Positions 1-30,498 of a DNA stretch of 31,172 bases are shown in pieces (position 1 is the stretch's first letter; every line of letters starts with the position of its first letter). Source of the DNA: Macrostomum lignano (lineage: Eukaryota); contig NIVC01002787.1 of NCBI GenBank assembly GCA_002269645.1, forward strand, positions 1 to 31,172, read 5' to 3'. Below the pieces are notes generated by a model. It was not told the DNA's origin. It made no database searches and worked only from the letters and a program-made list of their open reading frames with translations. Made by a program: the position numbers and the translations under genes.

Positions 1-2372
1 AGCAGGATTTGGCTGTGATGAATTTATGGCCGCGAAATTCGAGAGTGATAATATGCTCAAAGCAGCCCACACTCCCCCGGTGCGTGCGCCCGCATGACAG
101 CAGAGTTGTTGTTTAAGCACATTGACAAGATTGTGCAGTCAGACGCAAGCGTACTGTCGAGCAACTTTTCTATCCGGTTGCTAAAGGCCTGGGTGCCTCG
201 AGGTGGATGTGCTCTCGAGAACAAGCATCTAGAAGAGAGGCACGCTTTTTCAAAGCACTATGTCCGCATCACCAACACGGACAAGAGGTGCCTGCTGCGA
301 GCTCTGGTCGTGGCCTGCGCCTATCTGCAATTTGTGGCCAAGCGCATCACCGAGGATGTGTGGCGCAGGATCAAGGCCAATTCACCCAAGCAGACTAAGC
401 TGGTGACTGAGCTGCAAGTCGAAGCAGGCCTCTACACGGTAAGTTGTGCACTAATTTTCCACTGTATCAGGGAATACCAAAAGATTTATTTTCTGATAAG
501 AATTTCGTTTCTGGTTTCTAGTATTTTCATGGATTACTAAAAGAATTTTTACGATAAGGAATACTAAAAGCTATATTTTCTGATAAGAATTTTTACGATA
601 AGGAATACTAAAAGAAATATTTTGCCTCCACACAGACTCATCAAATCGTCTCGCAGGCCGGTCCTTTTGGGGTGGATGTTCTGCCCGAGGCGATACGGGC
701 CCTGAACCGTCTGCATCCAGGCCACGATTTTGGTGTACGAGTGTACAGGGCAGAGGAGGCCAACACGTGCATATTCAACCTGCCTGGCACCGAGATTCTG
801 CACCTGCACCTGGTCGAGCAGCACTTTAATGTGGTCACCAAGCTGCCTGCGTTTTTCGGCTCCGATCACTACTGCGCCAAGTGCGAGATGGCCTTCGATT
901 GCAATTATGAGAAGCACAAGTGCGCTGATGCCTGCAGTACATGCAAGACTCCGGGCTCCAACTGCAAAGCCAACCGTGCATATGTAAGATGCCATGATTG
1001 CGGGCTAAATTGCTATAATGCTCAGTGCCTAGAGAATCACAAGCGCAAGAATAAGGCGGGCAGATCGCGCTGTGATTCAGTCCACGTTTGCGGCACGTGT
1101 GGCTATCTAGAAGAACTGAAAGTAGGCCAGCCCCCGAGCATCAGTGTGGTTACGCCAAGTGTCCAGTCTGCAAGCAGTACGACGAAACGGCCACCCACGA
1201 GTGCTTTGTCACCCCGCCCAAAGCCAAAGAGTCTAGCGCCCCGTACGTTTACTATGATTTCGAGACGTACGTGGACCAAGCAGCACCGGGTACACTTGGT
1301 TACGGCTGCCACCTCCTGCGAGGCGTGTCCCAAACTCTTCCCCAGGCCCCGCTGCAGCGTGTGCGGGGGGTTGCACAGCTCAGCCAATTGCATTGCGGGA
1401 CGCAATCTGGCGCTGGATTTTACGAGCTGTGTCTCCCACAATGACTGTGCCTGTGGGATGCGAGAGTTTGTATCCGTTGGACTGCACTCTATCGATGCCT
1501 TTTACTGCTGGCTGACTAGCGTGTTCAAGCAGGGGGCAATTGCAATTGCGCACAATGGCTCTGCGTATGACGCATTCCTCCTGCTCGGCGCCCTACTCAA
1601 CGGACTGGCCAAGAAGAAGCCGCAGGTGATCTTCCAGAACAGCCGCCTAATGTACATGAAGTGCGACAAGATCACGTTCAAGGACAGCCTCAACTTTATC
1701 CCTATTGGTCTGGCGCAATTCCCAAAGGCGCTTGGTTTGGGCACCCAACTGACCAAAGGAGATTTCCCGCACGTGTTCAATCAGCCACAAAACTGGGGGT
1801 ACGTAGGTCCCTACTGCTCAATTGATATGTACGGCGGGAAGAAGAATAAGCAGCACGACTCCATCGCTGACTGGCTGGCCAAGCAGGAGGGACAGGTGTT
1901 TAATTTCAATAAGGAGTACCTGGACTATTGCCTGCAGGACACGTTAATTTTGCGGGAAGGCTGTCTAAAGTACACCCGCCTGATTAAGGACATTTGCGGA
2001 CTGGACGCATTTGTCCAATCCAACACCATTGCGGGCTTGGCTATGGCTGTTTTCACCACCAAGTTTATGGAGCCCAACACTCTTGGGGTGATTTCCCGCC
2101 GGTCCGATGTACAGTCGCACAAGGCGCGCTGCTGGCTGGCACATTTGAATGCAACCGAGTTTGGCGGCCGGTTGCGGACAGCCGATTCTGGCGGCGAGGC
2201 TTTCGCCATGGGCCGTAAGGTGGATGGCTTTGACCCGGAGACCAGGACAGTGCTGCAGTTTCATGGCTGCTTCTTCCATGGCTGTCCCAAGTGCTTCCCC
2301 AACGGCGACGTGCTGCACCCGCTCAAGAACCAGCCAATGCGGGCGATTTATGAGGAGACTGAGCGCTATTAG
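1..2372 (+). pseudogene. Protein-primed DNA polymerase B (pPolB), plus-strand copy: end of exon 3 (1-438), intron, exon 4 (about 657-2367); 3'-truncated
   Basis: Cys/His-rich Zn-finger-like clusters; Exo I YVYYDFETY (in the 1088..1444 frame); Exo II IAHNGSAYD; FKDSLNF; KGDFPH.FN; Exo III YCLQDT; TIAGLAM; Vsr-like nuclease insert VDGFD..QFHGCFFHGCPKCF. Compensating frameshifts at about 1131-1135 and 1277-1280. The ORF stops at the inversion junction before the polymerase motifs (no YxDTDS seen). Confidence 0.88.
439..656 (+). other. Spliceosomal intron 3 of pPolB
   Basis: Donor ACG|GTAAGT at 439, AT-rich body with internal repeats, acceptor TCGCAG|GCC at 656 (alternative ACACAG|ACT at 635). 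Both acceptors are phase 0 and join AGLYT to the 672..2372 frame. Confidence 0.8.
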
Positions 2373-2384
2373 TGCACAACTTAC

Positions 2385-4223
2385 CGTGTAGAGGCCTGCT
2401 TCGACTTGCAGCTCAGTCACCAGCTTAGTCTGCTTGGGTGAATTGGCCTTGATCCTGCGCCACACATCCTCGGTGATGCGCTTGGCCACAAATTGCAGAT
2501 AGGCGCAGGCCACGACCAGAGCTCGCAGCAGGCACCTCTTGTCCGTGTTGGTGATGCGGACATAGTGCTTTGAAAAAGCGTGCCTCTCTTCTAGATGCTT
2601 GTTCTCGAGAGCACATCCACCTCGAGGCACCCAGGCCTTTAGCAACCGGATAGAAAAGTTGCTCGACAGTACGCTTGCGTCTGACTGCACAATCTTGTCA
2701 ATGTGCTTAAACAACAACTCTGCTGTCATGCGGGCCGCACGCACCGGGGGAGTGTGGGCTGCTTTGAGCATATTATCACTCTCGAATTTCGCGGCCATAA
2801 ATTCATCACCAGCCAAATCCTGCTTGAATACTTCGAGCAAACTGGCAAATGTCTCGCGTAAGTCGCTAGTACCATCCAACTTTACCACATATTCCACACC
2901 CTTGGCCCTAAACTTGGGCAGGTCGCGCTGATTATCCAGCCGGGCCGTAAAACCTGTAGGGGGAATGAAGGGGGAGTGTGAGTCAGCCCGGGTCTGCCTG
3001 GGGAATAGGGGGCTGGATAACTCACCCGGTCCGGTAACAAATTCAGGTTGGGCAGGCGGGACAAACGCGTCTGAAAAAACACAAGGAGATAAAAAACCAG
3101 AAGAATCTGTCAATTCGTGGCACCCCAGGATCAGACTCCAACCGACTCATTGTTCACGCTCCCCCCCCCCTTGCGCTCAGGCCCTCCCACCGACACGCTC
3201 TGCAATTTTTTTAACCCCAGCCGCATCCCGCCTGGCTCTTTGTTAGCGCTCCCCATAACCCCTCGCACGCATGCCCCCTGCCGAGACGCATCTGCAATTT
3301 TTTAACCCTAGCCGCATCCGGCCTGGCTCATTGTTTGCGCTACTCCTCCCGCACAAGCCCTGCTGCTGAAACGCTCTGCAATTTTTTTAACCCTAGCCGC
3401 ATCCTGCCTGGCTCTTTGTTTGCGCTACCCCTCGCAAGCAAGCCCTGCTGCTGAAACGCTCTGCAATTTTTTAACCCTAGCCCGCATCCTGCCTGGTTCT
3501 TTGTTTGCGCACCCTCCCTACTCAAACTCGTAAGCTCCCTGTCGCAGCACTCTGAATTCCCGCATGCTCCTGCAGCTGTCAGAGCGCCCACCATTTTTTA
3601 TCTGGCCTGGCTCATTGTTTGCGCTCACGCATAACCCCTTGCGCTCAGGCCCTCCTGTTGAAATGCTCTGCAATTTTTTTAACCCCAGCCCGCAGCTGTT
3701 ATCCGGCCTGCTCTTTGTTTGCGCCCCCTCTCTACTCAAACTCGCATGCCCTGCTGCTGCACTCTGAATTCCCGCATGCTCCTGCAGCTGTCAGAGCGCC
3801 CACCATTTTTTATCCCGCCTGGCTCATAATCCCTCGCGCGTAGACCCTCCTGCTGAAATTCTCTGCAATTTTTTAACCCTAGCCGCATCCTGCCTGCTCT
3901 TTGTTTGCGCCCCCTCCCTACTCAAACTCGTAAGCTCCCTGTCGCAGCACTCTGAATTCTATAGCCCGCATGCGCCTGAAGCTGTCACAGCGGTAAACCC
4001 CTCAACTCTTTGTTAGCCCCCGCCTGTCTAGTCTGCTCTTATCAACTCTCTATCGCGCCTCTCTTGCTCCTGCCCCTGCCAATTCATAGAAGCTCCCTGC
4101 TGCAGCAACTCAAAACCCGTCTAGACTGATATACAACCGGATAGAAATTAATTAAAACTTACCATAAAGACGTTGCCTCTTGTCAGCTGGGAAAGTAGTC
4201 GATGCTGCGCTGCGTTTAGCCAT
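2385..4223 (-). CDS. pPolB 5' exons, inverted copy: exon 1 4223-4163, exon 2 3070-3026, exon 3 2953-2385; truncated within intron 3 at 2368
   Basis: gcaaaATGG start at 4223 (MAKRSAASTTFPADKRQRLY). Donor G|GTAAGT at 4162. Acceptor with long pyrimidine tract TTTTTTCAG| at 3071. Donor G|GTGAGT at 3025. Branch CTGAC, pyrimidine tract and CAG| at 2954. Donor |GTAAGT at 2384. Phases are 1/1/0 and all in frame. The ORF-track start at 3113 is a TTG inside intron 1. Confidence 0.78.
3150..3990. repeat. Imperfect tandem repeat array (about 90-bp core, with interspersed larger variants) inside pPolB intron 1
   Basis: About six copies of CTCTGCAATTTTTTAACCC(T/C)AGCCGCATCC..GCCTG(G)CTC(T/A)TTGTTTGCGC, plus three copies of GCACTCTGAATTC-containing blocks. 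Confidence 0.85.
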
Positions 4224-4439
4224 TTTGCATACAGAGAGAAGGATTATCTCTCTACCCCTGTTCTAGGGGTCCGAATATATACTAAAAACCTGCTTAGCTC
4301 GTCTATTATTGGCCAAATCACCAAAAAACCAACCAGAATCACTCAAAATCACCCCAAAATCACACCCTCCCACCCTCCATCTGGGGGTATATAAAGCGCT
4401 GCGCGGCTGTCGGAGAGCTCTCTGCTGCTGCTGCTAATC
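4224..4439. promoter_or_regulatory. Bidirectional promoter between pPolB (-) and the PC4-like gene (+)
   Basis: 216-bp gap between divergent ATGs. TATATA at 4276-4281 (about 53 nt upstream of the pPolB ATG), TATATAAA at 4388-4395, central ATTGGCCAA CCAAT-like element. Confidence 0.6.
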
Positions 4440-4986
4440 ATGTCTTCTTCTATCGCTCTATACGAAAACTTTGTGGCGCGGAAGCCCACATTTGAAACGG
4501 AGCATGACTTAATTGAAATCCGTCGGCTCTACACCGACGAAGCTGGAGTGTGGAAGGACGGCTTCCCAGCAATCTATTTAAGCGAGGTCGAGTGGAAGAA
4601 GCTCGAAGCTGCACGCCCTGACCTGGAGGCTGCGGCACGTCTTCACGTGGACAAGAGTCGTGTTGGGCAGCTTCAAGGCGGCAGAAGCTTCACAGGGGAG
4701 GATTCGTTTGCGGCGCAATTGGCTTAATCGGGATCCAAAGTTCAATTGGCGCTACACAATTGAATTCACGCCGGAACTGTGGCGCCGGATGTTTGCCGCC
4801 CGTTTGGGCAAGCTCTTCAAACCCAAGGCCCCGCCGCCAGCCAAGCGCGCCAGGACCGATACCTCTCTGGTAGCCAGGACTGAGGAGGAGGAAGAAAATC
4901 TCCAGGATGTTCTCCAGGTTGTGGGTCTCAAACCCTACCAATTCCCGCCCTGGGAAAATCTGTTTGACGAGAGTCAGCGCTGGTAG
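4440..4986 (+). CDS. Tandem PC4-like domain protein (putative ssDNA-binding), split by one frameshift at about 4635-4645
   Basis: DLIEIRRLYTDEAGVWKDGFPAIYLSEVEWKKL and RVVLGSFK..GRIRLRRNWLNRD..IEFTPELWRRM both fit the PC4/Sub1 pattern (xIDIRxY..G..KPG.KGISL..EQW..L) by eye. Basic PAKRAR and acidic EEEEE tail. Confidence 0.6.
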
Positions 4987-5098: not shown

Positions 5099-5782
5099 AT
5101 GTCCCGCCGCCGAGCTCTATCCACCCTCTGGGATAAAAACCGCCCATCTGAAGAATTAGCCTCCCTCGACGGTGAAATACCCGAACATATAATCCCCATA
5201 GGCATAGAAAACGGCGGACTTGACTATCCTGAAAATTGGGGTGCTGATATAGCCTTATCTTGGGCTTTGTGGGCTATTACCTACGATAGCGACCCGGGAT
5301 CTGAGATTTTCGACATCCCGTGGGGTAATAGCTACGATAGCGACACCGGGTCTGAGATTTTCGACCTCCCACCGCTGACTATCGGAGGGGGTGTGAACGC
5401 CGCCGCTGCCGACTCTGGTGCCTCTGCCGCTGCCGCCCCTGCCACCTCTGCCGCCGATGCCGACTCTGCCGCTGCCGACTCTGGTGTCTCAGCCTCTGCC
5501 GCCCCTGCTGCCGCTGCCGACTCTGGTGCGGCCTCCCCCGGTGTCTCTGCCTCTGCCGCCCCTGCTGCCGACTCTGGTGTCTCTGCCTCTGCCGCCACTG
5601 CTGCCGCTGCCGACTCTGGTGCTGCCTCCCCCGGTGTCTCTGCCTCTGCCGCCCCCACCTATGGTAAGATATTACACTGTATACACAATTCGTCTTATCA
5701 TATACAAAGCATATATTCTTTCTACATTAATTGTTTTAATTTCCCCATTGCAGTCGGCCGACTACTGATTCGAGACCCTTGA
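5099..5782 (+). CDS. Hypothetical Maverick accessory protein with duplicated YDSD(P/T)GSEIFD motif and Ala/Asp/Ser-rich repeats
   Basis: ATG with an upstream TATA. Possible in-frame 90-nt intron 5664-5753 (G|GTAAGA ... TTGCAG|). No recognisable family. Confidence 0.5.
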   Translation: MSRRRALSTLWDKNRPSEELASLDGEIPEHIIPIGIENGGLDYPENWGADIALSWALWAITYDSDPGSEIFDIPWGNSYDSDTGSEIFDLPPLTIGGGVNAAAADSGASAAAAPATSAADADSAAADSGVSASAAPAAAADSGAASPGVSASAAPAADSGVSASAATAAAADSGAASPGVSASAAPTYGKILHCIHNSSYHIQSIYSFYINCFNFPIAVGRLLIRDP

Positions 5783-5981
5783 GGAGGAGGCGGCATGAAA
5801 CAACACTGAGGAGCGGCTGGAGGTTTACTGGGGTTTGCGGTTTTTTCTCCCTGTACGTGATTTTCCCTGTCTGCGCGGCACTTGAGATAATAAAACCTAT
5901 TTGGAAGCTCCCCTGGGGAGAATTCTCTTTGTATGCGGTCTGCTACCTCCACTGTGCATTGGGGCGGTCTCTGTTACTCCT

Positions 5982-6081
5982 CTCTGCCCGCACTGTACAT
6001 TGGGATCCCCCGGCCCTGGGGAGGAATTGAATTTCTCTATGTTACTCTGCCCGCACTGTACATTGGGATCCCCGGCCCTGG
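5982..6081. repeat. 37-bp direct duplication (5982-6018 and 6045-6081)
   Basis: CTCTGCCCGCACTGTACATTGGGATCCCCGGCCCTGG occurs twice. Confidence 0.9.
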
Positions 6082-6599
6082 CTCTGGGGGCGTGTCTCGA
6101 ATATCCTGGGCTGGATATTTTACTTTGCACCTACATTATATGCTTAATTTTGCATGCATATGTTGTATTATACTTAACTTCCAGTGTGTGTATTTTATCC
6201 TATGCATTGAAATTTGTGCCTGCGGGTTAATATGCAAAATGTTTAAAATCTGCCTACATTATATGCTATGTAATTTTCCTGTATTATACTCAATTTGCAC
6301 CTACATTTTGTGTATGTATGCACCTGCATTATACTGTGTGTATTTCCGCCTATGTTTTATTAGCGCCTACTACACTAATAATGCGATATGTACCTGCTTT
6401 GTCTATTTCTGTCAATATAATATGCACCTACATGGTGTGTTTTTTGCTGCTCATATGCATCAATATGTACATTTTAATATGCATTATGCACCATTATTTA
6501 CACCTACCAATATGTTTTGCCTACTATTTTTATGTAAATATACACAATTTCACCTACTATAAGTAGTTTTCACTAGCCTAATATCATTGACTACATATC

Positions 6600-7204
6600 T
6601 GTGTATGCATACATATCGGGAGAGTGTACTGGGGAGAGTGTACTGAGGAGAGTGTACACTCGGGGTGCCTGCGGCATGGGAGAGTGTACACTCGGATGCC
6701 TGCGGTTTGGGAGAGTGTACACTCGAGTGCCTGCGGTTTGGGAGAGTGGAGCGCCTGCGGCATGGGCGCCTGCTGCTCTGGAGGGAGGGCATACATATCG
6801 GGGTACATATCGGGAGTGCGCATACATGTCGGGAGGGTACCCCTGCGGCATGGGCGCCTGCGGCATACATATCGGGAGGGTCGCCTGCGGCTCGGGAGGG
6901 TGCACATATCGGGAGGGTGCAGTGCGCCTGCGGCATGGGCGCCTGATTGGCGCTTGGCGCCACGCGCCTGCGGCGCGCGCGCCAATGAGAAGCGAGGTGG
7001 GTTGACACCCACCCCACCTCCAAAAACGCCCGGATCTGCCGGCCCTTAGTAGTCCTGTAGAATACCCTACCATTTGGTTCGGTATCTTTTTGGACAAGTT
7101 GCTTGGTTGATCGAAATTGAGATCTTTTCTTCTTTTGAATTCTTTGTGGGTACTGTGCCGTGTAGTTGAAATTCCTGTAGAATACTCTACCATTTGGTCC
7201 GGTA
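6600..7204. repeat. Maverick subterminal repeat region
   Basis: Multiple GAGAGTGTAC, GCCTGCGGCATGGG and CATATCGGGA motifs. 31-bp direct repeats at 7054-7084 and 7174-7204. Imperfect GC-rich palindrome at 6946-6986. Confidence 0.8.
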
Positions 7205-14164: not shown

Positions 14165-14280
14165 TTATCTAAATCATCTAAATCTCTAAATCCTCTAATC
14201 TTCTAATCTTCTTTCTTCTATCTTCTAATCTTCTAATCTCTAAATCTCTAAATCTCTAAATCTCTAAATCTCTAAATCAT
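14165..14280. repeat. (AATCTCTA)n / (AATCTTCT)n microsatellite
   Basis: Direct reading. It overlaps the stop codon of the FkbM gene. Confidence 0.85.
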
Positions 14281-15393
14281 CTGAATCTCTTTCTTAACTC
14301 GTGGCAAAAAGTCGTTTCTAATCCATATTCCGTCCCATTCACCAAATGTGGTGATTTTCTGCACTTGGAAGGTCCTCATGGACAGCAGAGAGAAGTTCCT
14401 GGAAGTCATGAAGTGAGTCACAAAGTTGTAATATTTCGACGCTTGCGGCGGCTCCGTGAGCTTCCGCCAGAACTCCATCTGCAGCGCCATGATGTTGAGC
14501 TCTCTAAACAGCTTTTCGCCAGTCTTCATGAACAGGTGCTCACCGGACTCGATATCCATCTTGATGATCACATTCTTGGTGCTGATGTGTTCTCGAAGCT
14601 CGTCCGCCCTGACCGTCATCACGGGAATAGTGTCCTCAATTGCTGTCGTAACCTTCTGTCTCCAGCCAGCCGCTGCACCCGAGCCGCTTCCGGCGTGGCA
14701 ACCAAAATCGTCAGCGTTCCAAGTGATTCGCTTGACCGCCACGTCGTCGCTGATGAAGCCCCAGAAGAGCTTCAGTTTGTCATCAAGCAAATCCAGCCTC
14801 TTCGCTGACATTTGCAACCTGGCCAATGCACGAATGTTTGCATCGATGGCCACTACGGGATACCCGAGCTCTCTGGCCTGCAGGCTGTAGATGCCGACGT
14901 TGCTGCCGACGTCAAGGAACGTTACCGAGTCTGTCGGAAACTGCTTTAACAGGTTGAGCATCGTCCGAATTTCGCCAGTTTCCCAGGCGTTCTTTTTTAG
15001 CATCTCCCCAGAAATGAAGTCCTCCGCGCCGAAGGTAAATATCGGCATTCGGCCGCCGCCCATCGCTCGGGTCACATTGGCCACAGGAGACCCTTGTCTG
15101 ACAATGGTGTACATCTGCTGCGGTAAGTTCCTGTTCAGCTCGCACAGGAGAAACTTGCCCCTGACTAAATGATAGGCCGGCGTCTCCTGACACAGCCGGT
15201 GCCGCAGGCTGGGGTTCGTGAAGTCGACGCTGCGGAGCTCGTTGTAGGCGGGACAGTTTTTGATCAACTGCACATCGCTCAGAACTGGCAGTGTGTCAGA
15301 ATCAGCGAAATTTCTGCGCCGAACGAGGTATGCTACAGTCAGTAAGACAGCTGCTGCGCCAGCTAGCGATATTAAGTTATTCTTTGTTCTCAT
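14272..15393 (-). CDS. FkbM-family (Methyltransf_21) SAM-dependent methyltransferase with N-terminal signal anchor, about 373 aa
   Basis: SAM-binding motif TFLDVGSNVGIYSL, V.AIDAN, IIKMDIESGE; hydrophobic LISLAGAAAVLLTVAYLV. Uninterrupted ORF. The likely start is MRTKNN at 15393; the ORF track extends to 15510. Confidence 0.85.
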   Translation of the reverse strand: MRTKNNLISLAGAAAVLLTVAYLVRRRNFADSDTLPVLSDVQLIKNCPAYNELRSVDFTNPSLRHRLCQETPAYHLVRGKFLLCELNRNLPQQMYTIVRQGSPVANVTRAMGGGRMPIFTFGAEDFISGEMLKKNAWETGEIRTMLNLLKQFPTDSVTFLDVGSNVGIYSLQARELGYPVVAIDANIRALARLQMSAKRLDLLDDKLKLFWGFISDDVAVKRITWNADDFGCHAGSGSGAAAGWRQKVTTAIEDTIPVMTVRADELREHISTKNVIIKMDIESGEHLFMKTGEKLFRELNIMALQMEFWRKLTEPPQASKYYNFVTHFMTSRNFSLLSMRTFQVQKITTFGEWDGIWIRNDFLPRVKKEIQMI

Positions 15394-16199
15394 CGTTTTT
15401 GCGCGAGCAGAAAGTTTTGAGATTGCAAAAAGCTCACAAGGATTTCTCGGAATGCATAGGAGGCCGTCTGTATCACGAGTTTTTATGCGTGAAAGGCAGA
15501 GTGTAAGCACTGGAATTGTGCTTACATCGAAGCAAACAACGGCCTCCTCTCATCTCGACCGGGGCTATCCAGCCAGACCAGCTCTAAACTAAAAGACAAA
15601 TAACAAAAGCCGAGGTTTGAGGGCCAAGCCAGCAGCCTGCGAACGCGTGACACAGTAGACTCGCAGCAATGCTTTGGGGGTGATATGGTTGCCTAACAAC
15701 AGCACACAGAAAAACTGCTCGAGCGATAACCCTGCCCCGCTCAAACTATGCATTGCTCTGCATTTTGTCAACTAAACCAGTTTGCTTGCTTGACTATAAA
15801 ATACACTGTCTTGAATAATTTGCGGTACAGAGAGGAGTTGGAGATGTGAGCCTCACACTCATAATAGGGCCCTTTGATGCCAGTGAGTTAGAAAGTCTTT
15901 CTGGCTTGTGAGCAGAAGATAGCAGGAAAATAAAACCTGTTAGACACAGAAATTCTTTGAGCACCTCTGCTACGCAGTCCCTCTCATACTGCCTGACTGT
16001 TTGGCTAATAACAAACCAAACTTCTTCAGCCTTCGGAATTGCGCACTGCGCAAAAGCAACGCAAGCTCAGTGATACAATCGTTTCTTAAGGAGAAAAGAG
16101 AGAGACGATAGAGAAAAGAAGACGCCTGGGTTTCTTTAGACGTGGGAATATGAATTTAAAGAGTGAAAAAATGGCTAAATATGAAGAGGGGGGATGGAG

Positions 16200-17730
16200 T
16201 GGCTAAATATGAAGACTGGAAATAGAGTGGCTAAATATGAAGAGTGGGAATAAAGAGGCTAAATATGAAGAGTGGGAATAGAGAGGCTAATTGAAAGAGT
16301 GGGAATGGAGAGGCTAATAGAAAGAGTGGGAATAAAGAGACTATAGAAAAAGTGGGAATGGAGAGGCTAATAGAAAGAGTGAGAATAAAGAGGCTAATGG
16401 GAAAAGTGGGAATGAAGTGGCTAATTGAAAGAGTGGGAATAGAGAGGCTAATTGAAAGAGTGGGAGTAAAGAGGCTAATGGGAGGAGTGAGAATAGAGAG
16501 GCTAATAGAAAGATTGGGAATAGAGTGGCTAATTGAAAGAGTGGGAATAGAGAGGCTAATGGGAAGAGTGGGAATAGAGAGGCTAATAGAAAGAGTGGGA
16601 ATAGAGAGGCTAATTGAAAGAGTGGGAATAGAGAGGCTAATGGGAAGAGTGGGAATAGAGAGGCTAATTGAAAGAGTGGGAATAGAGAGGCTAATGGGAA
16701 GAGTGAGAATAGAGAGGCTAACTAAAATAGTAGGAAAAGAGACTAATAGAAAGAGTGTGAATAGAAAGGCTAATAGAAAGTATGGGAGTACAGAGCTAAT
16801 TGAAAAAGTGGGAATAGAGAGGCTAATTGAAAGAGTGGGAATAGAGAGGCTAATAGAAAGAGTGGGAATAGAGAAGCTAATGGGAAGAGTGGGAATAGAG
16901 AGGCTAATAGAAAGAGTGGGAATAGAGAGGCTAATTGAAAGAGTGGGAATAGAGAGGCTAATGGGAAGAGTGAGAATAGAGAGGCTAACTAAAAGAGTAG
17001 GAATAGAGAGGCGAATTGAAAGAGTGGGAATAAAGAGGCTAATAGAAAGAGTGGGAATAGAGAGGCTAATAGAAAGAGTGGGAATAGAGAGGCTAATAGA
17101 AAGAGTGGGAATAGAGAGGCTAATGGGAAGAGTGGGAATAGAGAGGCTAATAGAAAGAGTGGGAATAGAGAGGCTAATAGAAAGGGTGGGAATAGAGAGG
17201 CTAATTGAAAGAGTGTGAATAGAGAGGCTAATAGAAAGAGTGGGAATAGAGAGGCTAATAGAAAGAGTGGGAATAGAGAGGCTAATGGGAAGAGTGGGAA
17301 TAGAGAGGCTAATAGAAAGAGTGGGAATAGAGAGGCTAATAGAAAGGGTGGGAATAGAGAGGCTAATTGAAAGAGTGTGAATAGAGAGGCTAATAGAAAG
17401 AGTGGGAATAGAGAGGCTAATTGAAATAGTGTGAATAGAGAGGCTCATTGAAATAGTGGGAATAGAGAAGCTAATGGGAAGAGTGGGAATAGAGTGGCTA
17501 ATATAAAGAGTGGGAATAGAGAGGCTAATTGAAAGAGTGGGAATAGAGAGGCTAATTGAAAAAGTGGGAATAAAGAGGCTAATTGAAAGAGTGGGAATAG
17601 AGAGGCTAATAGAAAGAGTGTGAATAGAGAGGCTCATTGAAATAGTGGGAATGGAGTGGCTAATTGAAAGATTGGGAAAAGAGAGGCTAACTGAAAGAGT
17701 AGGAATAGAGATGCTAATGGAAAGAGTGGG
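16200..17730. repeat. 27-bp minisatellite, about 55 copies
   Basis: Consensus GAAAGAGTGGGAATAGAGAGGCTAAT(A/T), degenerate at the left edge. It explains the IERVGIERL and SIPTLSISL pseudo-ORFs. Confidence 0.95.
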
Positions 17731-18705
17731 AATCATCATCTAAATATACTAAATCTCTTCTTCTATCTAAATATACTAAATCTCTAAGCTTTGTATGTTT
17801 GAATGCTTGCTTGTCCATAACGCTCTACAGATTGCAATTCTTGACCAATTTTGATCGCGTTTTCGCCAAAAGATTTCTAATCAGCCTGGGATTGTATGGT
17901 TAAAATTTCTTGTATCTGCTTCAATGCTAAAGGGATTAAATATTCGAAAAACATGTTTTCTGCAAAGGTCAAGCAGCTCTTTCTACTTGAAATGCGCTGT
18001 AAAAATGCTAGAGAAAAAACTGACTGGCTGAATTCTTATTCTGATAAAGATTACATCACAACAAGTTGAAAACACTGTGCCAAGTTGAAAGACAGCAATT
18101 GCGTAACCATATAGCAAACTTTAATTTAGACTGATACTGACTGCCTGCGTATTTAATTATGTCATAGCTGCTTCGTGTGACTTTCACTCGAACAGACTTT
18201 GTGTTAGTATTCGTGTATTCGTGTAGCACTCTAGAGATCTCTCTATAAAAAGATTTGTAATTATCTGGAAAGAAGGCAGCTAAAATTTCTTGTAGCTGCT
18301 TCAATGTTAAAGGTATTAAATATTCGAAAAACGAGTTTTTCTAATGCTTTTATTAGAAGGCCAAGCAAGGTTGAATTCTTGACTGGCTGAATTCCAATTC
18401 TAATTATAATTGCGCCACAACTGCGTACTGCATATTCTCGCTATAAACTGACTCTGAGCTTTTTAGGTGGAGGCAGTGTGCCAAGCATTGCGCAGGCACT
18501 CTGGAGGGAGAGCGAAATCAGCCAGTGCATTTTAAAAGTATTGAAATAAAATAATGCTCAGTGGCTGCGTGTGTACATTCTTCTGACCTTGGCTGAATGG
18601 CTCTGCCGGCACCAAACCTGTGCACACTGAGCAGCCTATCACTGCTATGTATTTGACCGCAATGTCAAAGCATATATGGCTGATTTTTGTGCCCTCCCAT
18701 CAGTA

Positions 18706-18776: not shown

Positions 18777-19904
18777 TCGCCGGCCGATAATTAAAATTAA
18801 ATAAATTAGTTCATTTATACCTAGCGCCTCAATTAATTGAATCATTTTTTATTAATTAGTAAGCCACACTCAATGAATTATATTTGCTATTCAGCACAAT
18901 ATTTTGCTATTCAGCACAAGTTGCTAAACAAATTTGATTTTGTCAATTTGAATTTGATTTGATTTCAGCCAGTGCATTTAAAAATTTGATTTGTAAAAAA
19001 CTGATTCGTGTATTACTGCTTCCGAATTGCAGACGATGCTGCTAAATAGCTAAATAGCTGAAGGTACTGCTAAATGCTGAGCTGCGCAAAAGACTGCCGA
19101 TATGTATCGAAAATTGATTAGTGAGCCCTACTAAATGCTGAGCAAATTTTCAGAATACTGAAAGAATAATTGCTGAGAAGACTCATTCATGCAGACTGCA
19201 AAGGGAAAAATTGAAAAAAACTGCTGAGGTATTCCTCCAGACTTATGAGTGTATAGCAGAGCAAGTTGTTGAGGGGATACGAGTAACTGCGGACTGCTGA
19301 GTGAATTATTGTAGCTTGCCGGTGCTAATGAAAGTTGTAGAGAGTAGTACCTGCAGGCTGCTAAGAGTATGACTGCAGTCTGTTTGCGGGATTAGAAGGG
19401 ATAGCTAATTTCAGGTTGTTGTGGGGATAACTGCCGATTTCTGGGGGGGGGGTTAACTTCAAAGTGCGAAGTTACTAAACTTCTAGAATAGTATAAGGCT
19501 TTTAGTAGAAGGTCGGCAGTTCGAGTCTACATTGAAGCAGCGAATTTATCGTTGTGACAATAATCATTGTTTCCTATGGGAATTCATGCAAATTTTTAAC
19601 ATTTTATTTTATATATACTTTCGCTGGGGCTACGCTAAGCTTCAAGAGCAGTGCTTATCTGCTGTAAGTGCTAATTTGCAAAGGGTATTTCTAATCTGGG
19701 TGAGCAGCGCTAATCGGGGAGAGCAGTGCTAATCTGTCGACGCATATAATAAAATAATAAATATGTAAGGAGATTAAATTTACCCTGCAAGTTGCAAAAA
19801 CATTTTAAATGGTTTCGATTATGCAGAACCAATATGGCCATATGCAAAGATTAGTGGCCATCTGCTCACTGATTGTGCAAAACAGTGCTGGTGAACCACT
19901 GCTA

Positions 19905-20025
19905 AACTGCTGGCGAAGCATTGCTAAACTGCATTGCTAAACTGCTGGTGAAGCATTGCTAAACTGCTGGTGAAGCATTGCTAAACTGCATTGCTAAACT
20001 GCTGGTGAACCATTGCTAAACTGCA
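19905..20025. repeat. Short tandem repeat of about 22 bp (CTGCTGGTGAAGCATTGCTAAA) with shorter variants
   Basis: Direct reading. Confidence 0.8.
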
Positions 20026-20929
20026 GAAAGCTATAGTGAAATATTGTATTTTTTAATATTAACTTCTGTTAAAGAGAAGAAAACGCAAAGGCAAGAAAAA
20101 ACGAACAAGAATCATCTTGTCAATCATAAAAAAGCACCCTGTCGAAAGTAAAAGTCTCATTGGGAATTGCTAAGACTGTTAAGACTGCTAAGACTATTGC
20201 TATGAGCATAATGCTGGTATGGCAAATTGCTGTGATATATCAATACTCATGGAAGGATTTATAAGATATCAAGACAAAGGGGAATTGCTATAATTATGTC
20301 ATTCTTGGGAGAATTGCTCTGAATTCAAGGTTCATTTGTGAAATTGCTGAAATTAATTGTTGAAATGCAAGTGCCAAGATATCAAATGGTTAGTCACTCA
20401 ATTTTCAGGCTCATGGGGAAATTGCTAACATTTCCAAAGCTCATTGGGGAATTGCTGAAATTCGACTACAGGTTAAGGGTTATGGTTTTGGTTAAATTAT
20501 AGAGCGATCGTCGTGACAACCATCAATGATCCATCGAGGAATTGCTAAGATTAAAGGCTCTTGGGGCGAATTACTTAAATGCTTTGGCTCTACGGGGAAT
20601 TGCTGATAGGTCAAGGCTTTCGGTGAAATTCAGATTACAAACCTTATGAGGAAGTTACTTTAATGCTGAGGCTCAAGGCTCATAGTGGAAATTGCTAACA
20701 TGCCAAGACTCACTTATGAGTAGGTTTGGGGGCTTAGGGTCAGTTTTGGTTCAATCATAGATTAACCGCTGTCAACAATCAATTAAAGACTTGCTAAGAT
20801 ATCAAAGCTCATGGGGGAATAGCTGAGTTATCAAGGCTTATAAGGGGATTGCTGAATTCTTGGGAGAGGGGAGTTGGGTTGTTGGGATGTCAAGGCTAAT
20901 TACTGCGCTGGGAGAATTGCTGCAATGTC

Positions 20930-22080
20930 GAGGCTTAATGGGGGAATTGCTGAGATGTCAAGTCCTACTAGGAATTGCTGAGATGTCAAGGCTTTCTGGG
21001 AATTGCTAAAATGTCAAGTCCTACTGGGAATTGCTAAGATTTCTATGCTTACTGAGATGTCAAGGCTTACTGGGGGAATTGCTGAGATGTCAAGGCTTAC
21101 TGGGGGAATTGCTGAGATCTCAGAGCTTACTGGGGGAATTGCTGAGATGTCAAGGCTTACTGAGGGAATTGCTGAGATGTCAAGGCTTACTGGGGGAATT
21201 GCTGAGATGTCAAGGCTTACTGGGGGAATTGCTGAGATCTCAAAACTTACTGGGATAATTTCTGAGATTTCAATGCTTACTGGGAAATGCTGAGATTTCA
21301 AGGCTTACTGGGGGAATTGCTGAGATGTCAAGGCTTACTGGGGGAATTGCTGAGATGTCAAGGCTCATGGACGATGGCTGAATTTTTTGGGGGGTGTTAG
21401 GTTGTTGGGCGATTGTCAGATAGTCAGGTAGTACGGCTCAAGTAGCTCATGTAATTCAGATAATGTAATTCAGATAAATTTTAACCATCAACCAAGGACT
21501 TGCCATCAACTAAAGACTAGCTAAGATGGGAGTTGCTAAGATATCAAAGCTCATGGATGGAATCGCTGAGTTGACAAGGCTCATGAAGAAATTGCTGAGA
21601 TATCAAGGCTCATAAGGGGATTGCTGAATTCTTGGGGGAGGGGAGTTGGGTTGTTGGGATGTCAAGGCTTACTCGGCTGAGAGAACTGCGTAGATGTCAA
21701 GGCTCGAGTTTAATTTCTGCGATGTCGATGCTTAATGGGGGAACTGCTGAGATGTCAAGGCTTTCTGGGGGAATTGATGAATTGTCAAGTCTTACTGGGA
21801 ATTGCTAAGATGTGAAGGCTTTCTGGGGGAATGCTGAGATTTCAAGGCTTACTGGGGGAATGCTGAGATATCAATGCTTACTGGGGGAATTGCTGAGATC
21901 TCAAGGCTTCTCAGCAATTCTTGCACGTATTAGCAATTGTTAGCCAAGTATTCTTAGCAATTCTTAGCAATTCTTGTCAAGGCTTACTGGTGGAATTGCT
22001 GAGATGTAAAGGCTTACTGGGAGAATTGCTGATATGTCAAGGCTTACTGGGGGGGAGGGGAATTGCTAAGATGCCAAGGC
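20930..22080. repeat. 30-bp minisatellite (GGGGGAATTGCTGAGATGTCAAGGCTTACT) in two blocks, about 20930-21360 and 21740-22080
   Basis: Direct reading. It explains the EMSRLTGGIA pseudo-ORFs. The blocks lie within a duplication of about 700 bp. Confidence 0.9.
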
Positions 22081-22597
22081 TCATGGACGATGGCTGAATT
22101 GTTGGGGGATGTTAGGTTGTTAGGCGATTGTCAGATAGTCAGGTAGTACAGCTGAAGTACCTCATGTAATTCAGATAATGAAATTGTACACACAAGTGAT
22201 GCTGATTTCTGCTAATAGGAAATACCAGCGCATTTATTAAAGGTTTCATTCTTTGATTCAGGCTAATTAAGAGAGAGGGTCTAAGGCCGTCAATGATTTG
22301 CATATTTGCAGCGGATCAGAATATGCCCCGGCCAGCGACGATATGCACTAAGAGTTTGTGCTTGAAAGGATAAGCACTATTTGTTGATTGAAAAAGGGTT
22401 TTGTGCTGATGAAGGAAACTTTTTTGGCTGATGAAAGTTCTGATTCATGGCAATTTATTTTTGCCAAAATGAGAAAAGGTAATTTTTGATTAATGGAAAT
22501 CAACATTTTGGATAATTATAGTAAGGTTACTCTTGCGTCAAAATAAAAACCAATTGGTGTCATTTTAGGGCTCCCCAAAGGGGGGCTAAATGGCTAG

Positions 22598-24932
22598 TCA
22601 CAATATACTAAATCTCTAAGGTTTGTCTGTCTGTCTGACCGGTATTCCAGTCTACAGCCTGAAAGCCTGAACCGATTTTTTTCAAGCTTGCTTCATTCAA
22701 TTGCAAATTCTTGTGAGATTGTGTGGGTGTAATTGCATTGAAAAATTCGAATGAGAAGTTGGTTAAATATTCGAAAAACGAGTTTTTTTAATGCTTTCAA
22801 TGGGAGGCTAGAAAAGGTCAAAATCTCACTGACTGAATTTCAATTCCAATTAAGATTGCGCCACAACTTTTCTCTGTTCACTGTGTACGCCTCAATACTG
22901 GCTGCAATAAGGGAGAGGAAAATAATGCTCAGTGGCTGCGTGTGTACATTCTGACCCTGGCTGACTGGCGGACTGCATAGACAGTTGCTATTTATAGATT
23001 TCACTCAACTGTGCATTGGCTCTGCCTGCACATAACTGCTTAATGAACTGAGCAGCCTATCACTGCTATGTATTTGACTGCAGTGCCGAAGAATATATGG
23101 CTGATTTTTGCGCCCTCCGATCAGTAGGCGGAATAGCCGCAGTGTAGGCACTAGGACTAGGTTTAGGCTAGGCATAAGGTCCAAGGTTCGAGTCCGCCTC
23201 CCCAGCGGATAATTAAAATTAAATAAATTCATTCATTAGTAGCTTCTGCCTCGACTATTTTGAACATTTTTGATTAATTGTAAAAATTCTTTATTAATTA
23301 CAATAATTTATTTTTGCTACTCGCACAAGCCACTAAGCAAATTTGATTTGATTTGTAAAATCCTAAGATCCCATTAATTGTTATTATCTAGGTCTATAGA
23401 AGTAGATTTTTAGTATATAGGACTAAACTGCAGGGGATTAAATTACTAAACTGCAGACGATGCTGCTAAACTGCTGAGGTATTGCTAAATGCTGAGTGGT
23501 GCAAAAGATTGCCGATATGTATCGAAAATCGATTAGTGAGCCATAAAATGCTGAGCTTATTTCAACATTGTTGAAAGCATCATTGCAGTAGATGATGCTG
23601 CTAAACTGCTGAGGTATTGCTAAATGCTGAGTTGCGCAAGACTGCCAATATGTATCGAAAATTCGTGTCGTAAATGCTGAGAAAATTTTTAAATCATTGA
23701 AAAGATCATTGCAGTTTGCTGAGAATACTAAGGGGCCAGCTGAGAGAACTGCAGACTGCTGCAAAGGGATAAATGAGAATTATTAAGGAAACACTTGCTG
23801 ACTGCAAATGAATTGACTGCAGACTACTGAGGGGAACTGCAGATTGTTGAAGGGATCATTGCAGACTGCAAAGGGGACAAACTGCAAACTGCTGACGTTA
23901 GTTAGTTTCTCGAGACTTATGAGCGTATAAGCTGCAAACTGCTGAGGGGATAGCTGCAGACTGCTAGGATAATAATGGCAGACTTCTGAGGAGGATATCT
24001 AACTGTGAATAATTGTAGCTTGCAGAAGGGACAATTCTGGGTCCCTGAGGGATAAATGAATAATAATAATAAAAGTAGTAGAGTGCAAATGAGTTGTATG
24101 ACTGCATGTCTGTTTTGCGGAATTAGAAGGGATAATTTCAGGTTGTTGTGGGGATAACTGCCAATTTCTGGGGAGGGTTTAACTTTAAACTTGTGAGGCG
24201 ATAATAGTAGTCGCCTTTTAGCAGTTTGGGAGTGGTGCTAATCTGGGGAGCGGTGCTAATCTAAGGGAGTGGGGCTAATATAAAGGAGTGGGGGGGGCTA
24301 ATCTGGAGGAAGTAGCGGTGCGAATTTTTGCGGAGTGGTGCTAATCTGGAGGAAGTAGCGGTGCGAATTTTTGCGGAGTGATGCTAATCTGGGAAGGTGA
24401 AACTATCTGGGAAGCGGCGGTAATCTGTGGAGCGGTGCTAATCTAGGCTGAGTGCTAATCTGGGCTGAGTGCTAATCTGGGCTGAGTGCTAATCTGGGCT
24501 GAGTGCTAATCTGGACTGAGTGCTAATCTGGGCTGAGTGCTAATCTGGGCTGAGTGCTAATCTGGGGGAAGTGGGGCTAATCTGGGGGTGTGCGGCTAAT
24601 ATGGGGGGAGTAGTGCTAATCTGGGGGAAGTGGGGCTAATCTGGGGGTGTAGGGCTAATGTGGGAGAATAGTGGTAATCTGATGAGGATTTGAAAATAAC
24701 GAATAATCATAAAAGAACTAAAAATGAATTGACATTGCAAAGTTTCAAACATAAAGAAATGTAAATTTTTAGAACTTTTTAGTCTCAGTAAAATTGGTGT
24801 ACAACTACTTAGAGATTTGCTACTGCAGAACTGCGCGGAGATTAGTGAGATATGCTCAGCGACTGTGACAAACTGCTTATAGACAAGCGCTAAACTGCTA
24901 AGAAGCCACCCGGAGGGGGGCTAAATGGCTAG
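22598..24932 (+). mobile_element. Non-autonomous Helitron-like unit H2 (2335 bp)
   Basis: 5' TCACAATATACTAAATCTCTAAG with (TCTG)n; 3' GCCACCCGGAGGGGGGC-TAAATGG-CTAG. Shares internal blocks with H1 and H3. Confidence 0.8.
24436..24560. repeat. 17-bp tandem repeat (GCTAATCTGGGCTGAGT), 7 copies, in H2
   Basis: Direct count. Confidence 0.9.
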
Positions 24933-25719
24933 TCAATATACTAAATCTCTAAGGTTTGACCGGTATTCCAGTCCACAGCCTGAATGCCTGAACCGTTTTT
25001 TTTCAAACTTGCTTTATTTAATTGCAAATTCTTGTGAGATTGTGTGGGTGTAATTGCATTGAAAAATTCGAATGAGAAGTTGGTTAAATATTCGAAAAAC
25101 GAGTTTTTTTAATGCTTTCAATGGGAGGCTAGTAAAGGTCAAAATCTCACTAACTGAATTTTAATTCCAATTAAGATTGCGCCACAACTTTTCTCTGTTC
25201 ACTGTGTACGCCTCAATACTGGCTGCAATAAGGGAGAGGAAAATAATGCTCAGTGGCTGCGTGTGTACATTCTGACCCTGGCTGACTGGCGGACTGCATA
25301 GCCTATTGCTATTTATAGATTTCACTCAACTGTGCATTGGCTCTGCCTGCATACAACCTGTGCACACTGAGCAGCCTATCACTGCTATGTATTTGACTGC
25401 AGTGCCGAAGCATATATGGCTGATTTTTGCGCCCTCCGATCAGTAGGCGGAATAGCCGCAGTGTAGGCACTAGGACTAGGTTTTGAGGCGATAATAGTAG
25501 TCACCTTTTAGCAGTTTGGGAGTGGTGCTAATCTGGGGAGCGGTGCTAATCTAAGGGAGTGGGGCTAATATAAAGGAGTGGGGGGCTAATCTGGGGGATT
25601 GGGGCTAATCTGGAGGAAGTAGCGGTGCCAACTTTTGCGGAGTCGTGCAAATCTGGAGAAGTAGTGCTAATCTGGGAAGGTGAAACTATCTGGGAAGCGG
25701 CGGTAATCTGTGGAGCGGT

Positions 25720-26035
25720 GCTAATCTAGGCTGAGTGCTAATCTGGGCTGAGTGCTAATCTGGGCTGAGTGCTAATTTAGGCTGAGTGCTAATCTAGGCT
25801 GAGTGCTAATCTGGGCTGAGTGCTAATCTAGGCAGAGTGCTAATCTAGGCTGAGTGCTAATCTGGGCTGAGTGCTAATCTAGGCAGAGTGCTAATCTAGG
25901 CTGAGTGCTAATCTTGGCTGAGTGCTAATCTGGGCTGAGTGCTAATCTAGGCTGAGTGCTAATCTAGGCTGAGTGCTAATCTGGGCTGAGTGCTAATCTG
26001 GGCTGAGTGCTAATCTAGGCTGAGTGCTAATCTGG
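25720..26035. repeat. 17-bp tandem repeat (GCTAATCT(A/G)GGCTGAGT), about 18 copies, in H3
   Basis: Direct count. Confidence 0.9.
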
Positions 26036-26259
26036 GCGCAGTGCTAATCTGGACGTAGTGCTAATCTGGGGGAAGTGGGGCTAATCTGGCGGTGTGCGGC
26101 TAATATGGAGGGAGTAGTGCTAATCTTGGACGTAGTGCTAATCTGGGGGAAGTGGGGCTAATCTGGGGGTGTAGGGCTAATGTGGGAGAATAGTGCTAAT
26201 CTGGTGAGGATTTGAAAATAACAAATAATCATAAAAAAACTATAAATGAATTGACATTG

Positions 26260-26480
26260 TGTTGTATATTAACAGAGAAGACACAGAGTATGCCCCAAGC
26301 CCAATGTTTTGTTGTCTAAGGCACAACCTATTATTTTATAATAAAGTACGAGCTAGTTACAACATGAATCCCAAGAGGAGTTCGTAACTACCGGAGCAAT
26401 ACGATAGCTCGAACCCCTAAGCGAACCGTTGTCTTCTTACTTAAATGTAGCAGCTCCACGTCGGAGCAGAAGACATAACA
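26260..26480 (+). repeat. 5' LTR (221 bp)
   Basis: TGTTGTATATT...GACATAACA; identical to the 3' LTR except for one C in a run. Confidence 0.97.
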
Positions 26481-29400: not shown

Positions 29401-30498
29401 ACATCCAGGAATTGTTGCAATGAAATCCATAGCTAGACTGCATGTATGGTTCCCAGGAATCGACAAGGCTATAGAAGCCCTAGTCCATAGTTGTGAAGGC
29501 TGTCAGCTGCAAAGGAATTTGCCTGCACAAGCACCAGTTCAGCCTCTTGTCTGGCCGGAAAGGCCTTGGACTCGAATTCAACTGGACTACATGGGACCAT
29601 TCCATGGATACTACTGGCTTGTTATAGTCGATGCAACAAGTAAATGGGTTGAGATCTTTCCCATGAAGCACGCAACTACCAACAGGACGATAGAATGCTA
29701 CGAGAAACTTTCGCACGATTTGGCATCCCACAGCAAGTGTTGAGTGACAATGGAAGCCAGTTCTGCTCAGCTGAGTTCCGTACTTTCCTAGAGCGGAATA
29801 ACATCCGACAGATTTTGACAGCTGTTGGACATCCGCGTACCAACGGACTTAGTGAAAGAATGGTGCAAACAGCAAAGTCTGCTATTAAAGCAGGAATTAA
29901 GACTCACGGTGATCCAATCTTGAGCATGCAGAACTTTCTGTTTCGCTATCGCAGTACACCTCATTCAACAACCGGTAGAACACCAGCAGAGATGATGCTA
30001 TGCTACAGTCGCAGGACACGGTTGGATTTTCTTAAGCCGGATGCTTACTCAAGAGTGTTAAACAAGCAGACGGATGTCACTGAACGACAAATAGAGAGAG
30101 GATCAACTATTCGAGAATTTCAAGAAGGAGACTCAGTTCTGACGTTGGACTTCAGAAGGGAGCGAGAAAACAGGTGGATTTCTGCCAAGGTGATCGCCCG
30201 CACAGGACCGCTGTCCTATAGACTGTTGGTCAACGGACAAGTCTGGAAGCGACACGTCGACCAAATTGTCAGTGCAGAATTACCTGGACAGAACAAGCCG
30301 GAGGCTCATCACCTACCGCCTATTCTGAAGGATCCTAGGAGAGTTCAGAGCGACAAAACTACCACCGAGAAAGAGCGGCGAGAGAGTGAATCAACTCAAC
30401 CGGTCCAAGACGTGCCAAGCCGAGGAGAATCTCAGACAGCGGACACAGACCAGGATGACGCTGACCTGGAGCAGAAGGCGTGGGCACAAGGATACTGA
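26481..30498 (+). pseudogene. gag-pol: gag-pol polyprotein with one in-frame TGA (28647-28649) and two -1 frameshifts (about 28962 and 29698)
   Basis: CCHC knuckles CFRCNAKDHWARSC and CSKCGRVGHLRDAC; protease LDTGA; RT YIDD; RNase H TDAS..EKEALAI; integrase HHCC plus D(IQLDY), D(SDNG), E(GLSER); C-terminal SH3-like WISAKV..SY. Confidence 0.95.
26482..26491 (+). promoter_or_regulatory. Primer-binding site TGGCGACGAG
   Basis: Lies 1 nt after the LTR. Complementary to a tRNA 3' end ...CUCGUCGCCA, as in eukaryotic tRNA-Ser(GCU) (assignment from memory). Confidence 0.75.

Follow-up and report, generated by a model that had tools for sequence, protein, structure and literature searches.

Polintons, or Mavericks (adintoviruses, Eupolintoviridae), carry their genes on one element: a DNA polymerase of family B that is protein-primed (pPolB), an rve integrase, a double jelly-roll capsid protein, an ATPase, a protease and a penton-like open reading frame (ORF), set between long inverted repeats and flanked by 6-bp target duplications, usually over 13-25 kb (10.1101/2023.08.22.554363). 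Published screens for them look for pPolB together with integrase, or for five core genes, in a span of 20 kb (10.1101/2023.08.22.554363, 10.1101/2024.01.15.575659), or assume that there are no introns (PMC10120064), so that elements with divided gene sets would by design escape them and may be more common than such screens suggest. The window analysed here is the first 31,172 bases of contig C2787 from the free-living flatworm Macrostomum lignano (genome of 764 Mb, assembly of 5269 contigs), and it opens with a damaged copy of a spliced pPolB gene that belongs to a family of polymerase-carrying elements, P1. The same genome holds a second such family, P2, and two families that carry capsid and integrase, C1 and C2. 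Judged by gene content neither half would classify as a Polinton alone, and together they look like one; we put at roughly three in four the probability that P and C are the two halves of one bipartite Polinton. Full-text literature searches turned up no bipartite Polinton and no Polinton of Macrostomum; Repbase, Dfam, the founding papers of 2006-2007 and supplements lay outside that search, and entries there could record the elements separately.

The genome searches score the best candidates only, and the totals, 93 loci for polymerase and 59 for capsid, were compiled from the matches by hand, with split halves and weak tail matches left out; they are lower bounds. P1 occupies at least 58 and P2 at least 35 (about 35) loci dispersed in the genome. 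About 35 of the 93 polymerase loci were looked at in detail, as were 11 C1 and 5 C2 of the 59 capsid loci. The DNA search for P1 gave 40 matches of 67 candidates; 20 copies were retrieved and 18 are colinear, the two fold-back twins (L001 and L002) standing outside the 18.

Colinear P1 copies measure 8.5-11 kb, with inverted repeats of 1.1-1.3 kb (0.3 kb in one P2 element), ends of the form 5'-ACTACT...AGTAGT-3' and 6-bp duplications. Twelve markers for integrase, capsid, ATPase and protease found nothing inside any of 25 P1 stretches (23 gave no match, and two gave matches that lie in the flank), the integrase being without a match in all 25; P thus has beside its pPolB neither the integrase nor the capsid, ATPase and protease that share an element with pPolB in Polintons. 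Near one of ten P2 loci there is a weak integrase match, 5 kb upstream of exon 3. Exact 6-bp duplications flank 6/6 P1, 2/2 P2, 6/7 C1 and 4/5 C2 elements, 3/4 gene-less derivatives and the 1/1 fold-back element, or 22 of the 25 elements in which both ends were recognised (two of nine C1 loci had no recognised second end and were left out; the window and contigs C1090 and C986 count as one insertion, as do the C2 loci on C251 and C3051). A 6-bp duplication suggests that an integrase of Polinton type was supplied in trans. The gene-less elements (L024, L026, L027, L037) span 3.4-8.9 kb; they have P-type ends, inverted arms that are long and made up of foreign sequence, and 6-bp duplications. 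Such derivatives, with P ends and duplications but no genes, show that the ends suffice for movement.

Beside the polymerase, P1 carries two further ORFs. ORF A resembles PC4 below the Pfam cut-off (E 0.03-0.2; PDB PC4, E 0.38), has homologues in two other Polinton families of the same genome and likely encodes a single-strand DNA binding protein; it is frameshifted in the window contig and continuous in C1090 and C986. ORF B has no family match and is absent from the 8.5-kb P1 subtype. Two candidate partners for P were rejected. A P-type derivative has inserted into a complete Polinton of an unrelated, high-copy kind whose polymerase is intronless, and it is to this Polinton that a penton gene within a P-type repeat (L034) belongs; a capsid ORF beside two P copies (L008, L012) is flank, cut by the P insertion. 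P-type elements are thus found inside other Polintons (L008:1341, L012:1328, L034), twice at one site in a capsid gene.

C1 was found by tracing capsid genes in the genome. It is a 10.5-kb element with 655-bp inverted repeats (0.5-0.8 kb among C elements) and a 6-bp duplication, encoding an rve integrase (E 2e-9) and a Fic protein (E 7e-14, both Pfam). A sequence search of its capsid against PDB gave no match; the model of the capsid (pLDDT 82), in a fold search, matches the capsids of PBCV-1, mavirus and Sputnik with E down to 7e-18, and the protein is by this prediction a double jelly roll. Further C1 ORFs have ATPase, protease and penton features; those taken for ATPase and protease are 96-100% identical among 11 copies, and the C genes examined are single ORFs. 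C2, of 9.6-10.9 kb, has a capsid about 90% and an integrase 81% identical to those of C1, and no Fic match. A polymerase was found in none of 11 C1 and none of 5 C2 loci. As to the remaining content of C1 (L077:7408 to L078:7918, contig C181, with ten like loci), the Fic-domain gene is accompanied by three or four ORFs of no known family. Three database capsids (P0171-P0173), 80-81% identical to that of C1, lie on short contigs from other data sets and may point to relatives elsewhere. Viral contigs scanned with exon 5 of the polymerase and metagenome contigs scanned with a capsid homologue gave no match, so that there is no sign of free contigs, which is weak evidence.

What ties P to C is the sequence of their ends. 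The first 32 nt of the 10.5-kb C1 element equal those of a P1 element, and two C1 ends are the same as P1 ends over 32/32 nt. Over the first 30 nt the best match of C1 ends to P1 is 26-30 (18/18 ends) and of C2 ends to P2 24-28 (10/10 ends), with at most 21 across the pairs; the C2 ends ACTACGTA/ACTACATA match P2. The sequence common to P and C extends over about 32 nt, and these 32 nt are a mosaic of short discrete blocks, present in the same combinations on P and C; beyond them there is a 36-nt promoter-like match alone, and the other repeat sequence is unrelated. The two kinds of element are integrated apart: the 93 polymerase and 59 capsid loci have two contigs in common, at distances of 50 kb and 467 kb, and no polymerase locus lies within 50 kb of any capsid locus. 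The integrated copies of P and C together therefore present two marks of a segmented genome, complementary essential genes that lie apart and a shared terminal sequence, and it is on the complementary gene sets, the separate loci and the shared ends that we base the bipartite reading. We infer from gene content and shared ends that P and C depend on each other.

Some further features of the ends were observed. The terminal 32 nt are much more variable than the repeat behind them, some copies have different variants at their two ends, and some carry one more ACT unit, which is what protein priming with a slide-back start would produce. A C-rich, promoter-like stretch with a TATA motif precedes ORF A on P (window 4360-4400) and the main gene block of C (L078:5470-5510), and there is a like motif before the P2 polymerase.

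Such elements could also have arisen by fission of one ancestor and now be independent and helper-dependent, each borrowing its missing enzyme from complete Polintons and owing its ends to common descent. The genome is rich in complete Polintons (of 614 candidates, 136 penton matches were scored), the gene-less derivatives with P-type ends move in trans, and Polinton-like viruses without integrase that nevertheless integrate have been described (PMC11296320). However, the same combinations of terminal blocks on P and C, in repeats that are otherwise unrelated, call for an exchange that continues; each of two diverged pairs has retained an end type of its own; and the complete families examined have no match to the P element and no ACTACTAAG end. 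We regard this origin as unlikely. Less probable still is an origin of P and C as decaying products of deletion from a complete Polinton with introns, itself extinct or missing from the assembly. Many copies do have 1-nt deletions, stops or rearrangements, fold-back and gene-less derivatives exist, and the assembly is in 5269 contigs; but deletion derivatives would have whole inverted repeats in common rather than some 32 nt, the P exons show purifying selection among copies, the C1 ATPase and protease are nearly invariant, some elements have inverted repeats that are 98-99.6% identical, and two pairs, with polymerases that differ by 26-45%, are split alike.

The bipartite reading can be carried further, to a segmented double-stranded DNA virus of the double jelly-roll lineage, in which both segments are packaged, replicated and integrated by way of a common 32-nt end that is swapped between them, and of which two co-diverged pairs exist in one animal genome; this we advance tentatively, at a little under even odds. 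On the bipartite reading as such, the pPolB message would be spliced by the host, and the P polymerase, primed by a terminal-protein domain of its own, would start on the shared end of either segment and copy both as linear DNA. The C integrase would recognise the same ends and insert both segments. Template switching at the ends during joint replication could give P and C the same terminal blocks, and a switch inside the polymerase gene could yield a fold-back copy, a defective replication product inserted by enzymes in trans.

The polymerase gene is itself unusual among Polintons. In full it has seven exons (61, 45, 569, 1920, 548, 294 and 394 nt; 1276 codons) and six introns; over the 18 colinear copies the donors are GT in 108/108 and the acceptors AG in 108/108 cases, which is more than chance. 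Exons 1 to 7 have exactly these lengths in 17, 17, 15, 10, 14, 13 and 16 of the 18 copies and are otherwise off by 1-5 nt; introns 1 to 6 range over 488-1188, 68-73, 154-309, 67-128, 68-89 and 67-73 nt. Among full-length distinct copies the ratio of nonsynonymous to synonymous polymorphism (pN/pS) of exons 1 to 7 is 0.36, 0.14, 0.18, 0.11, 0.08, 0.05 and 0.08, and the exons are under purifying selection. The protein matches 649 library proteins at E<=1e-30, and database entries labelled Macrostomum lignano reach 100% identity to the family. It has the PF03175 match of a Polinton-type pPolB, and exons 3-7 tile a profile of 40 homologues from outside the host; the original prediction of a spliced pPolB gene with a micro-exon is supported, the gene being of Polinton type. 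Exon 3 makes the N-terminus of that profile (positions 45-236, E 4e-22), and the profile is gapless across introns 4-6 (847/848, 1032/1034, 1128/1130). A Cys in exon 3, the likely nucleophile, and a His in exon 4, both matched by motif and not by fold, likely fit the vOTU protease domain of Polinton polymerases (PMC11161782).

Three of the introns interrupt catalytic motifs: intron 4 lies in motif A (D-V|V-S-L-Y-P), intron 5 in motif B (N-S|L-W-G-K-F) and intron 6 in motif C (D-T-D-S|V). Among 1269 11-column windows ranked by conservation those at introns 4, 5 and 6 take places 8, 6 and 97, and that at intron 3 place 897, in a test devised after the pattern had been seen. Inteins and homing introns favour such conserved catalytic motifs. 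As a guess, the introns descend from site-seeking mobile introns, or selection has tied polymerase activity to nuclear splicing.

No intronless member of the family was found, 0/105 exon 6 matches lying in an open frame of more than 280 aa. The P2 polymerase is 55-74% identical to that of P1 by exon. In the four P2 copies examined introns 3-6 fall at the P1 codons and phases and a micro-exon stands ahead of exon 3; in the single copy read to its full length the micro-exon has 51 nt and the first exon, with its phase-1 donor, resembles that of P1, which is the main independent support for exon 1. With six intron positions and phases recurring between families so diverged, and the positions conserved in the 18 colinear P1 copies, the comparison of related copies that the original prediction had called for favours its suggestion of long adaptation to spliceosomal expression. 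Six spliceosomal introns, a TATA-like promoter and spliced RNA-type contigs might also be features of a Polinton gene domesticated by the host, a reading that is hardly credible in view of the dispersed P1 and P2 loci, where each complete copy examined lies within inverted repeats and its own target duplication.

The copy in the window is arranged as follows, with its element's end and the neighbouring ORFs:

1..438, plus strand: second copy, inverted, of the 3' portion of exon 3, truncated where the contig begins
439..635, plus strand: intron 3, 197 nt, with a second in-frame AG before 657 (218 nt)
636..2367, plus strand: exon 4, truncated before motif A, with the likely vOTU His, a Cys-rich region, exonuclease and a VSR-like insert by motif
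2368..2384, minus strand: intron 3 stub, the fold-back junction being at 2367/2368
2385..2953, minus strand: exon 3, 569 nt, pPolB N-terminal region with the conserved Cys
2954..3025, minus strand: intron 2, 72 nt in the window, 68-73 nt in other copies
3026..3070, minus strand: exon 2, the micro-exon, 45 nt, phase 1-1
3071..4162, minus strand: intron 1, 1092 nt, with tandem repeats of 85 and 212 nt
4163..4223, minus strand: pPolB exon 1, 61 nt, phase-1 donor, encoding a basic peptide that resembles a nuclear localization signal by inspection only
4440..4986, plus strand: ORF A, divergently transcribed, weakly PC4-like
5099..5800, plus strand: ORF B, acidic, with an internal deletion in the window and a probable intron at 5665-5753
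5862..7053, no strand: terminal inverted repeat of the element, about 1.2 kb
7021..7053, minus strand: terminal 33 nt (5'-ACTACT end), the sole repeat stretch in common with the capsid/integrase element
7054..7059, no strand: 6-bp target site duplication; in C1090 this hexamer flanks the 11,294-bp fold-back element on either side

The coordinates, lengths, GT-AG ends and phases (1, 1, 0) first proposed for this copy are all present in the window sequence. They had been read as one gene with three introns that joins both arms. The three introns are real, and the colinear copies give the full gene six, with seven exons; the joining of the arms does not hold, for positions 1-455 are an inverted copy of 2368-2824 at 99.6% identity, and exons 1-3 on the minus strand and exon 4 on the plus strand are opposite arms of a fold-back, not one transcription unit. 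Exon 4 still matches PF03175 (E 9.5e-15). The gene copy ends at 2367, ahead of polymerase motifs A-C, and the stretch with the Exo I motif is thrown out of frame by small deletions, one near 1135 and one near 1276, so that, by its sequence, the window copy is dead and could not encode a working polymerase.

Long-read chimeras give inverted duplications, the fold-back lies at the contig start, and the 72-nt intron 2 and the frameshift of ORF A, in which the window differs from its twin contigs, look like assembly errors; the fold-back might on these grounds be an assembly chimera, affecting this copy only. We consider this very improbable, since the 2367/2368 junction is found in three contigs (the window, C1090 and C986, the last with the same flank as C1090), C1090 holds the entire fold-back as an 11,294-bp element with an identical end on both sides, differing flanks and an exact 6-bp target duplication, and inverted pairs of family genes occur at other loci.

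Contigs of presumed RNA origin bear on the splicing directly. Fourteen runs best guessed as RNA share 0.26-0.37 of words, four sequencing runs were placed on the window, and the statements on joints below refer to the 15 of 24 joints listed. One contig of run X5 (1/4 runs) skips 2954-3025, 72 nt with CT..AC ends, and contigs of X5 and X7 (2/4 runs, two studies) join exon 3 to 636; the junctions predicted at 3026/2953 and 438/636 are thereby seen, and those at 4163/3070 and 438/657 are not among the joints listed. Introns 1 and 4-6 are argued for by comparison among copies. In public gene models exon 1 is missed, but the micro-exon is spliced to exon 3, and this in turn to the first acceptor. 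Many RNA-type contigs are unspliced. Since they run past 2367 into normal exon 4 and carry alleles of other copies (0/20 alleles in the window's twin, up to 19/20 in other copies), expression would come from the colinear copies.

The alternative splicing once suggested for this gene fares less well. Intron 2 has a length that is a multiple of three in 5/21 copies and is 73 nt in the two near-identical twins; its frame not being conserved among copies, retention of intron 2 is not supported, and the in-frame 72 nt of the window are an accident of this contig. At intron 3 the second acceptor, before 657, is a CAG present in 18/18 colinear copies, in the window and in the single P2 copy examined, and it coincides with a Gln codon; the RNA-type contigs show 636 alone among the joints listed, the profile of outside homologues gives no choice between 636 and 657, and use of the second acceptor is unproven.

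Several points weigh against the bipartite reading or the gene model on which it draws. The genome also holds several complete Polintons that have an integrase and an intronless polymerase themselves and could in principle serve either element (the ends of one such family were seen, and they differ), and a complete P+C element may have been missed or remain unassembled. The pairing is not perfectly clean: a subterminal stretch of about 23 nt in C2 is common to P1 and not P2, and P2 has no detectable ORF A. The C1 ATPase, protease and penton ORFs have no Pfam match above the cut-off and were named from motifs and gene order. Exons 1 and 2 have no match to the profile of 40 outside homologues, no joint for intron 1 is among those listed, and the RNA nature of the runs is a guess made without a DNA control.

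Other repeats and genes were noted in passing. On contigs C3085, C4430, C2274, C1313 and C633 polymerase, capsid or penton genes stand in inverted pairs with a few kb between them, probably as more fold-back derivatives. Many polymerase fragments of P1 and P2, in either orientation, are clustered on C157, C471 and C513, and these clusters may be sources of small RNAs. Intronless polymerase genes occur in at least four other Polinton families of the genome (L041-L060, L071-L076, L079-L080), one of them with hundreds of candidate copies and two with homologues of the PC4-like ORF. In the window itself, 14272-15549 (minus strand) is an ORF of 425 aa, intronless, that weakly matches FkbM methyltransferase (E 4e-4), and L034 is flanked by a similar one; 26451-30498 (plus strand) is a Gypsy-type retrotransposon that has gag, protease and reverse transcriptase, its integrase region being frameshifted; and 16184-17733 and 19700-26200 hold a 27-nt satellite (57 copies) and several tandem arrays of 17-30 nt.

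Read as a bipartite Polinton, P and C would exemplify in nature the decoupling that has been proposed between replication and morphogenesis modules, and would point to a 32-nt minimal origin and integration signal. The host is a laboratory model flatworm in which Polinton excision, protein-primed replication and virion formation could be observed, and the introns in motifs A, B and C bear on the way in which viral genes acquire introns.

Summed over P and C, the gene set is that of Polintons, and both elements likewise have long inverted repeats as well as 6-bp target duplications; the genes are on two elements rather than one, and P and C are each below the usual Polinton size. The common Polinton end is 5'-(AGT)2//(ACT)2-3', whereas P and C have 5'-ACTACT..AGTAGT-3', an AC-type end having been reported in one fish (PMC8097293); P1, with 5'-ACTAC...GTAGT-3', therefore lacks the 5'-AG...CT-3' end of Polintons. 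Intact vertebrate Mavericks, which are single elements, are intronless (PMC8097293), unlike the pPolB of P. Spliceosomal introns are found also in dinoflagellate Polinton-like proviruses with introners (PMC12166617), but as recent insertions of intron-making transposons, while those of P occupy six positions fixed over two diverged families, three of them in catalytic motifs; group I introns have been reported in Polinton-like elements as well (PMC12220804).

As for the division of genes, C resembles the polymerase-less Polinton-like viruses and Tlr-type elements, which have capsid and integrase without a detectable polymerase (PMC10120064); these carry other replicases or depend on giant viruses, and the portion of that source available to us mentions no cognate polymerase element with shared ends. 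Loci of C. elegans with pPolB and a repeat but no integrase have been called remnants (10.1101/2024.01.15.575659). Independent mobility has been proposed for transpovirons and stand-alone replication modules (10.64898/2026.10.13.758929), but the proposed module joins pPolB to a DDE transposase, whereas here the integrase goes with the capsid and the polymerase half is without one. The closest precedent for a division into segments is that of the bidnaviruses (PMC8502044, 10.1101/2024.03.25.586562): Bombyx mori bidensovirus is segmented, with pPolB on one segment, inverted repeats proper to each and a 53-nt common end (PMC6521256). Bidnaviruses differ in being single-stranded, with a parvovirus-type capsid, no integrase, no splicing observed, and capsid genes also on the pPolB segment. 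P has no NS1-like ORF and its partner has a predicted double jelly-roll capsid, which places the pair outside the Bidnaviridae, defined by a parvovirus-type capsid with NS1 and a single-stranded genome.

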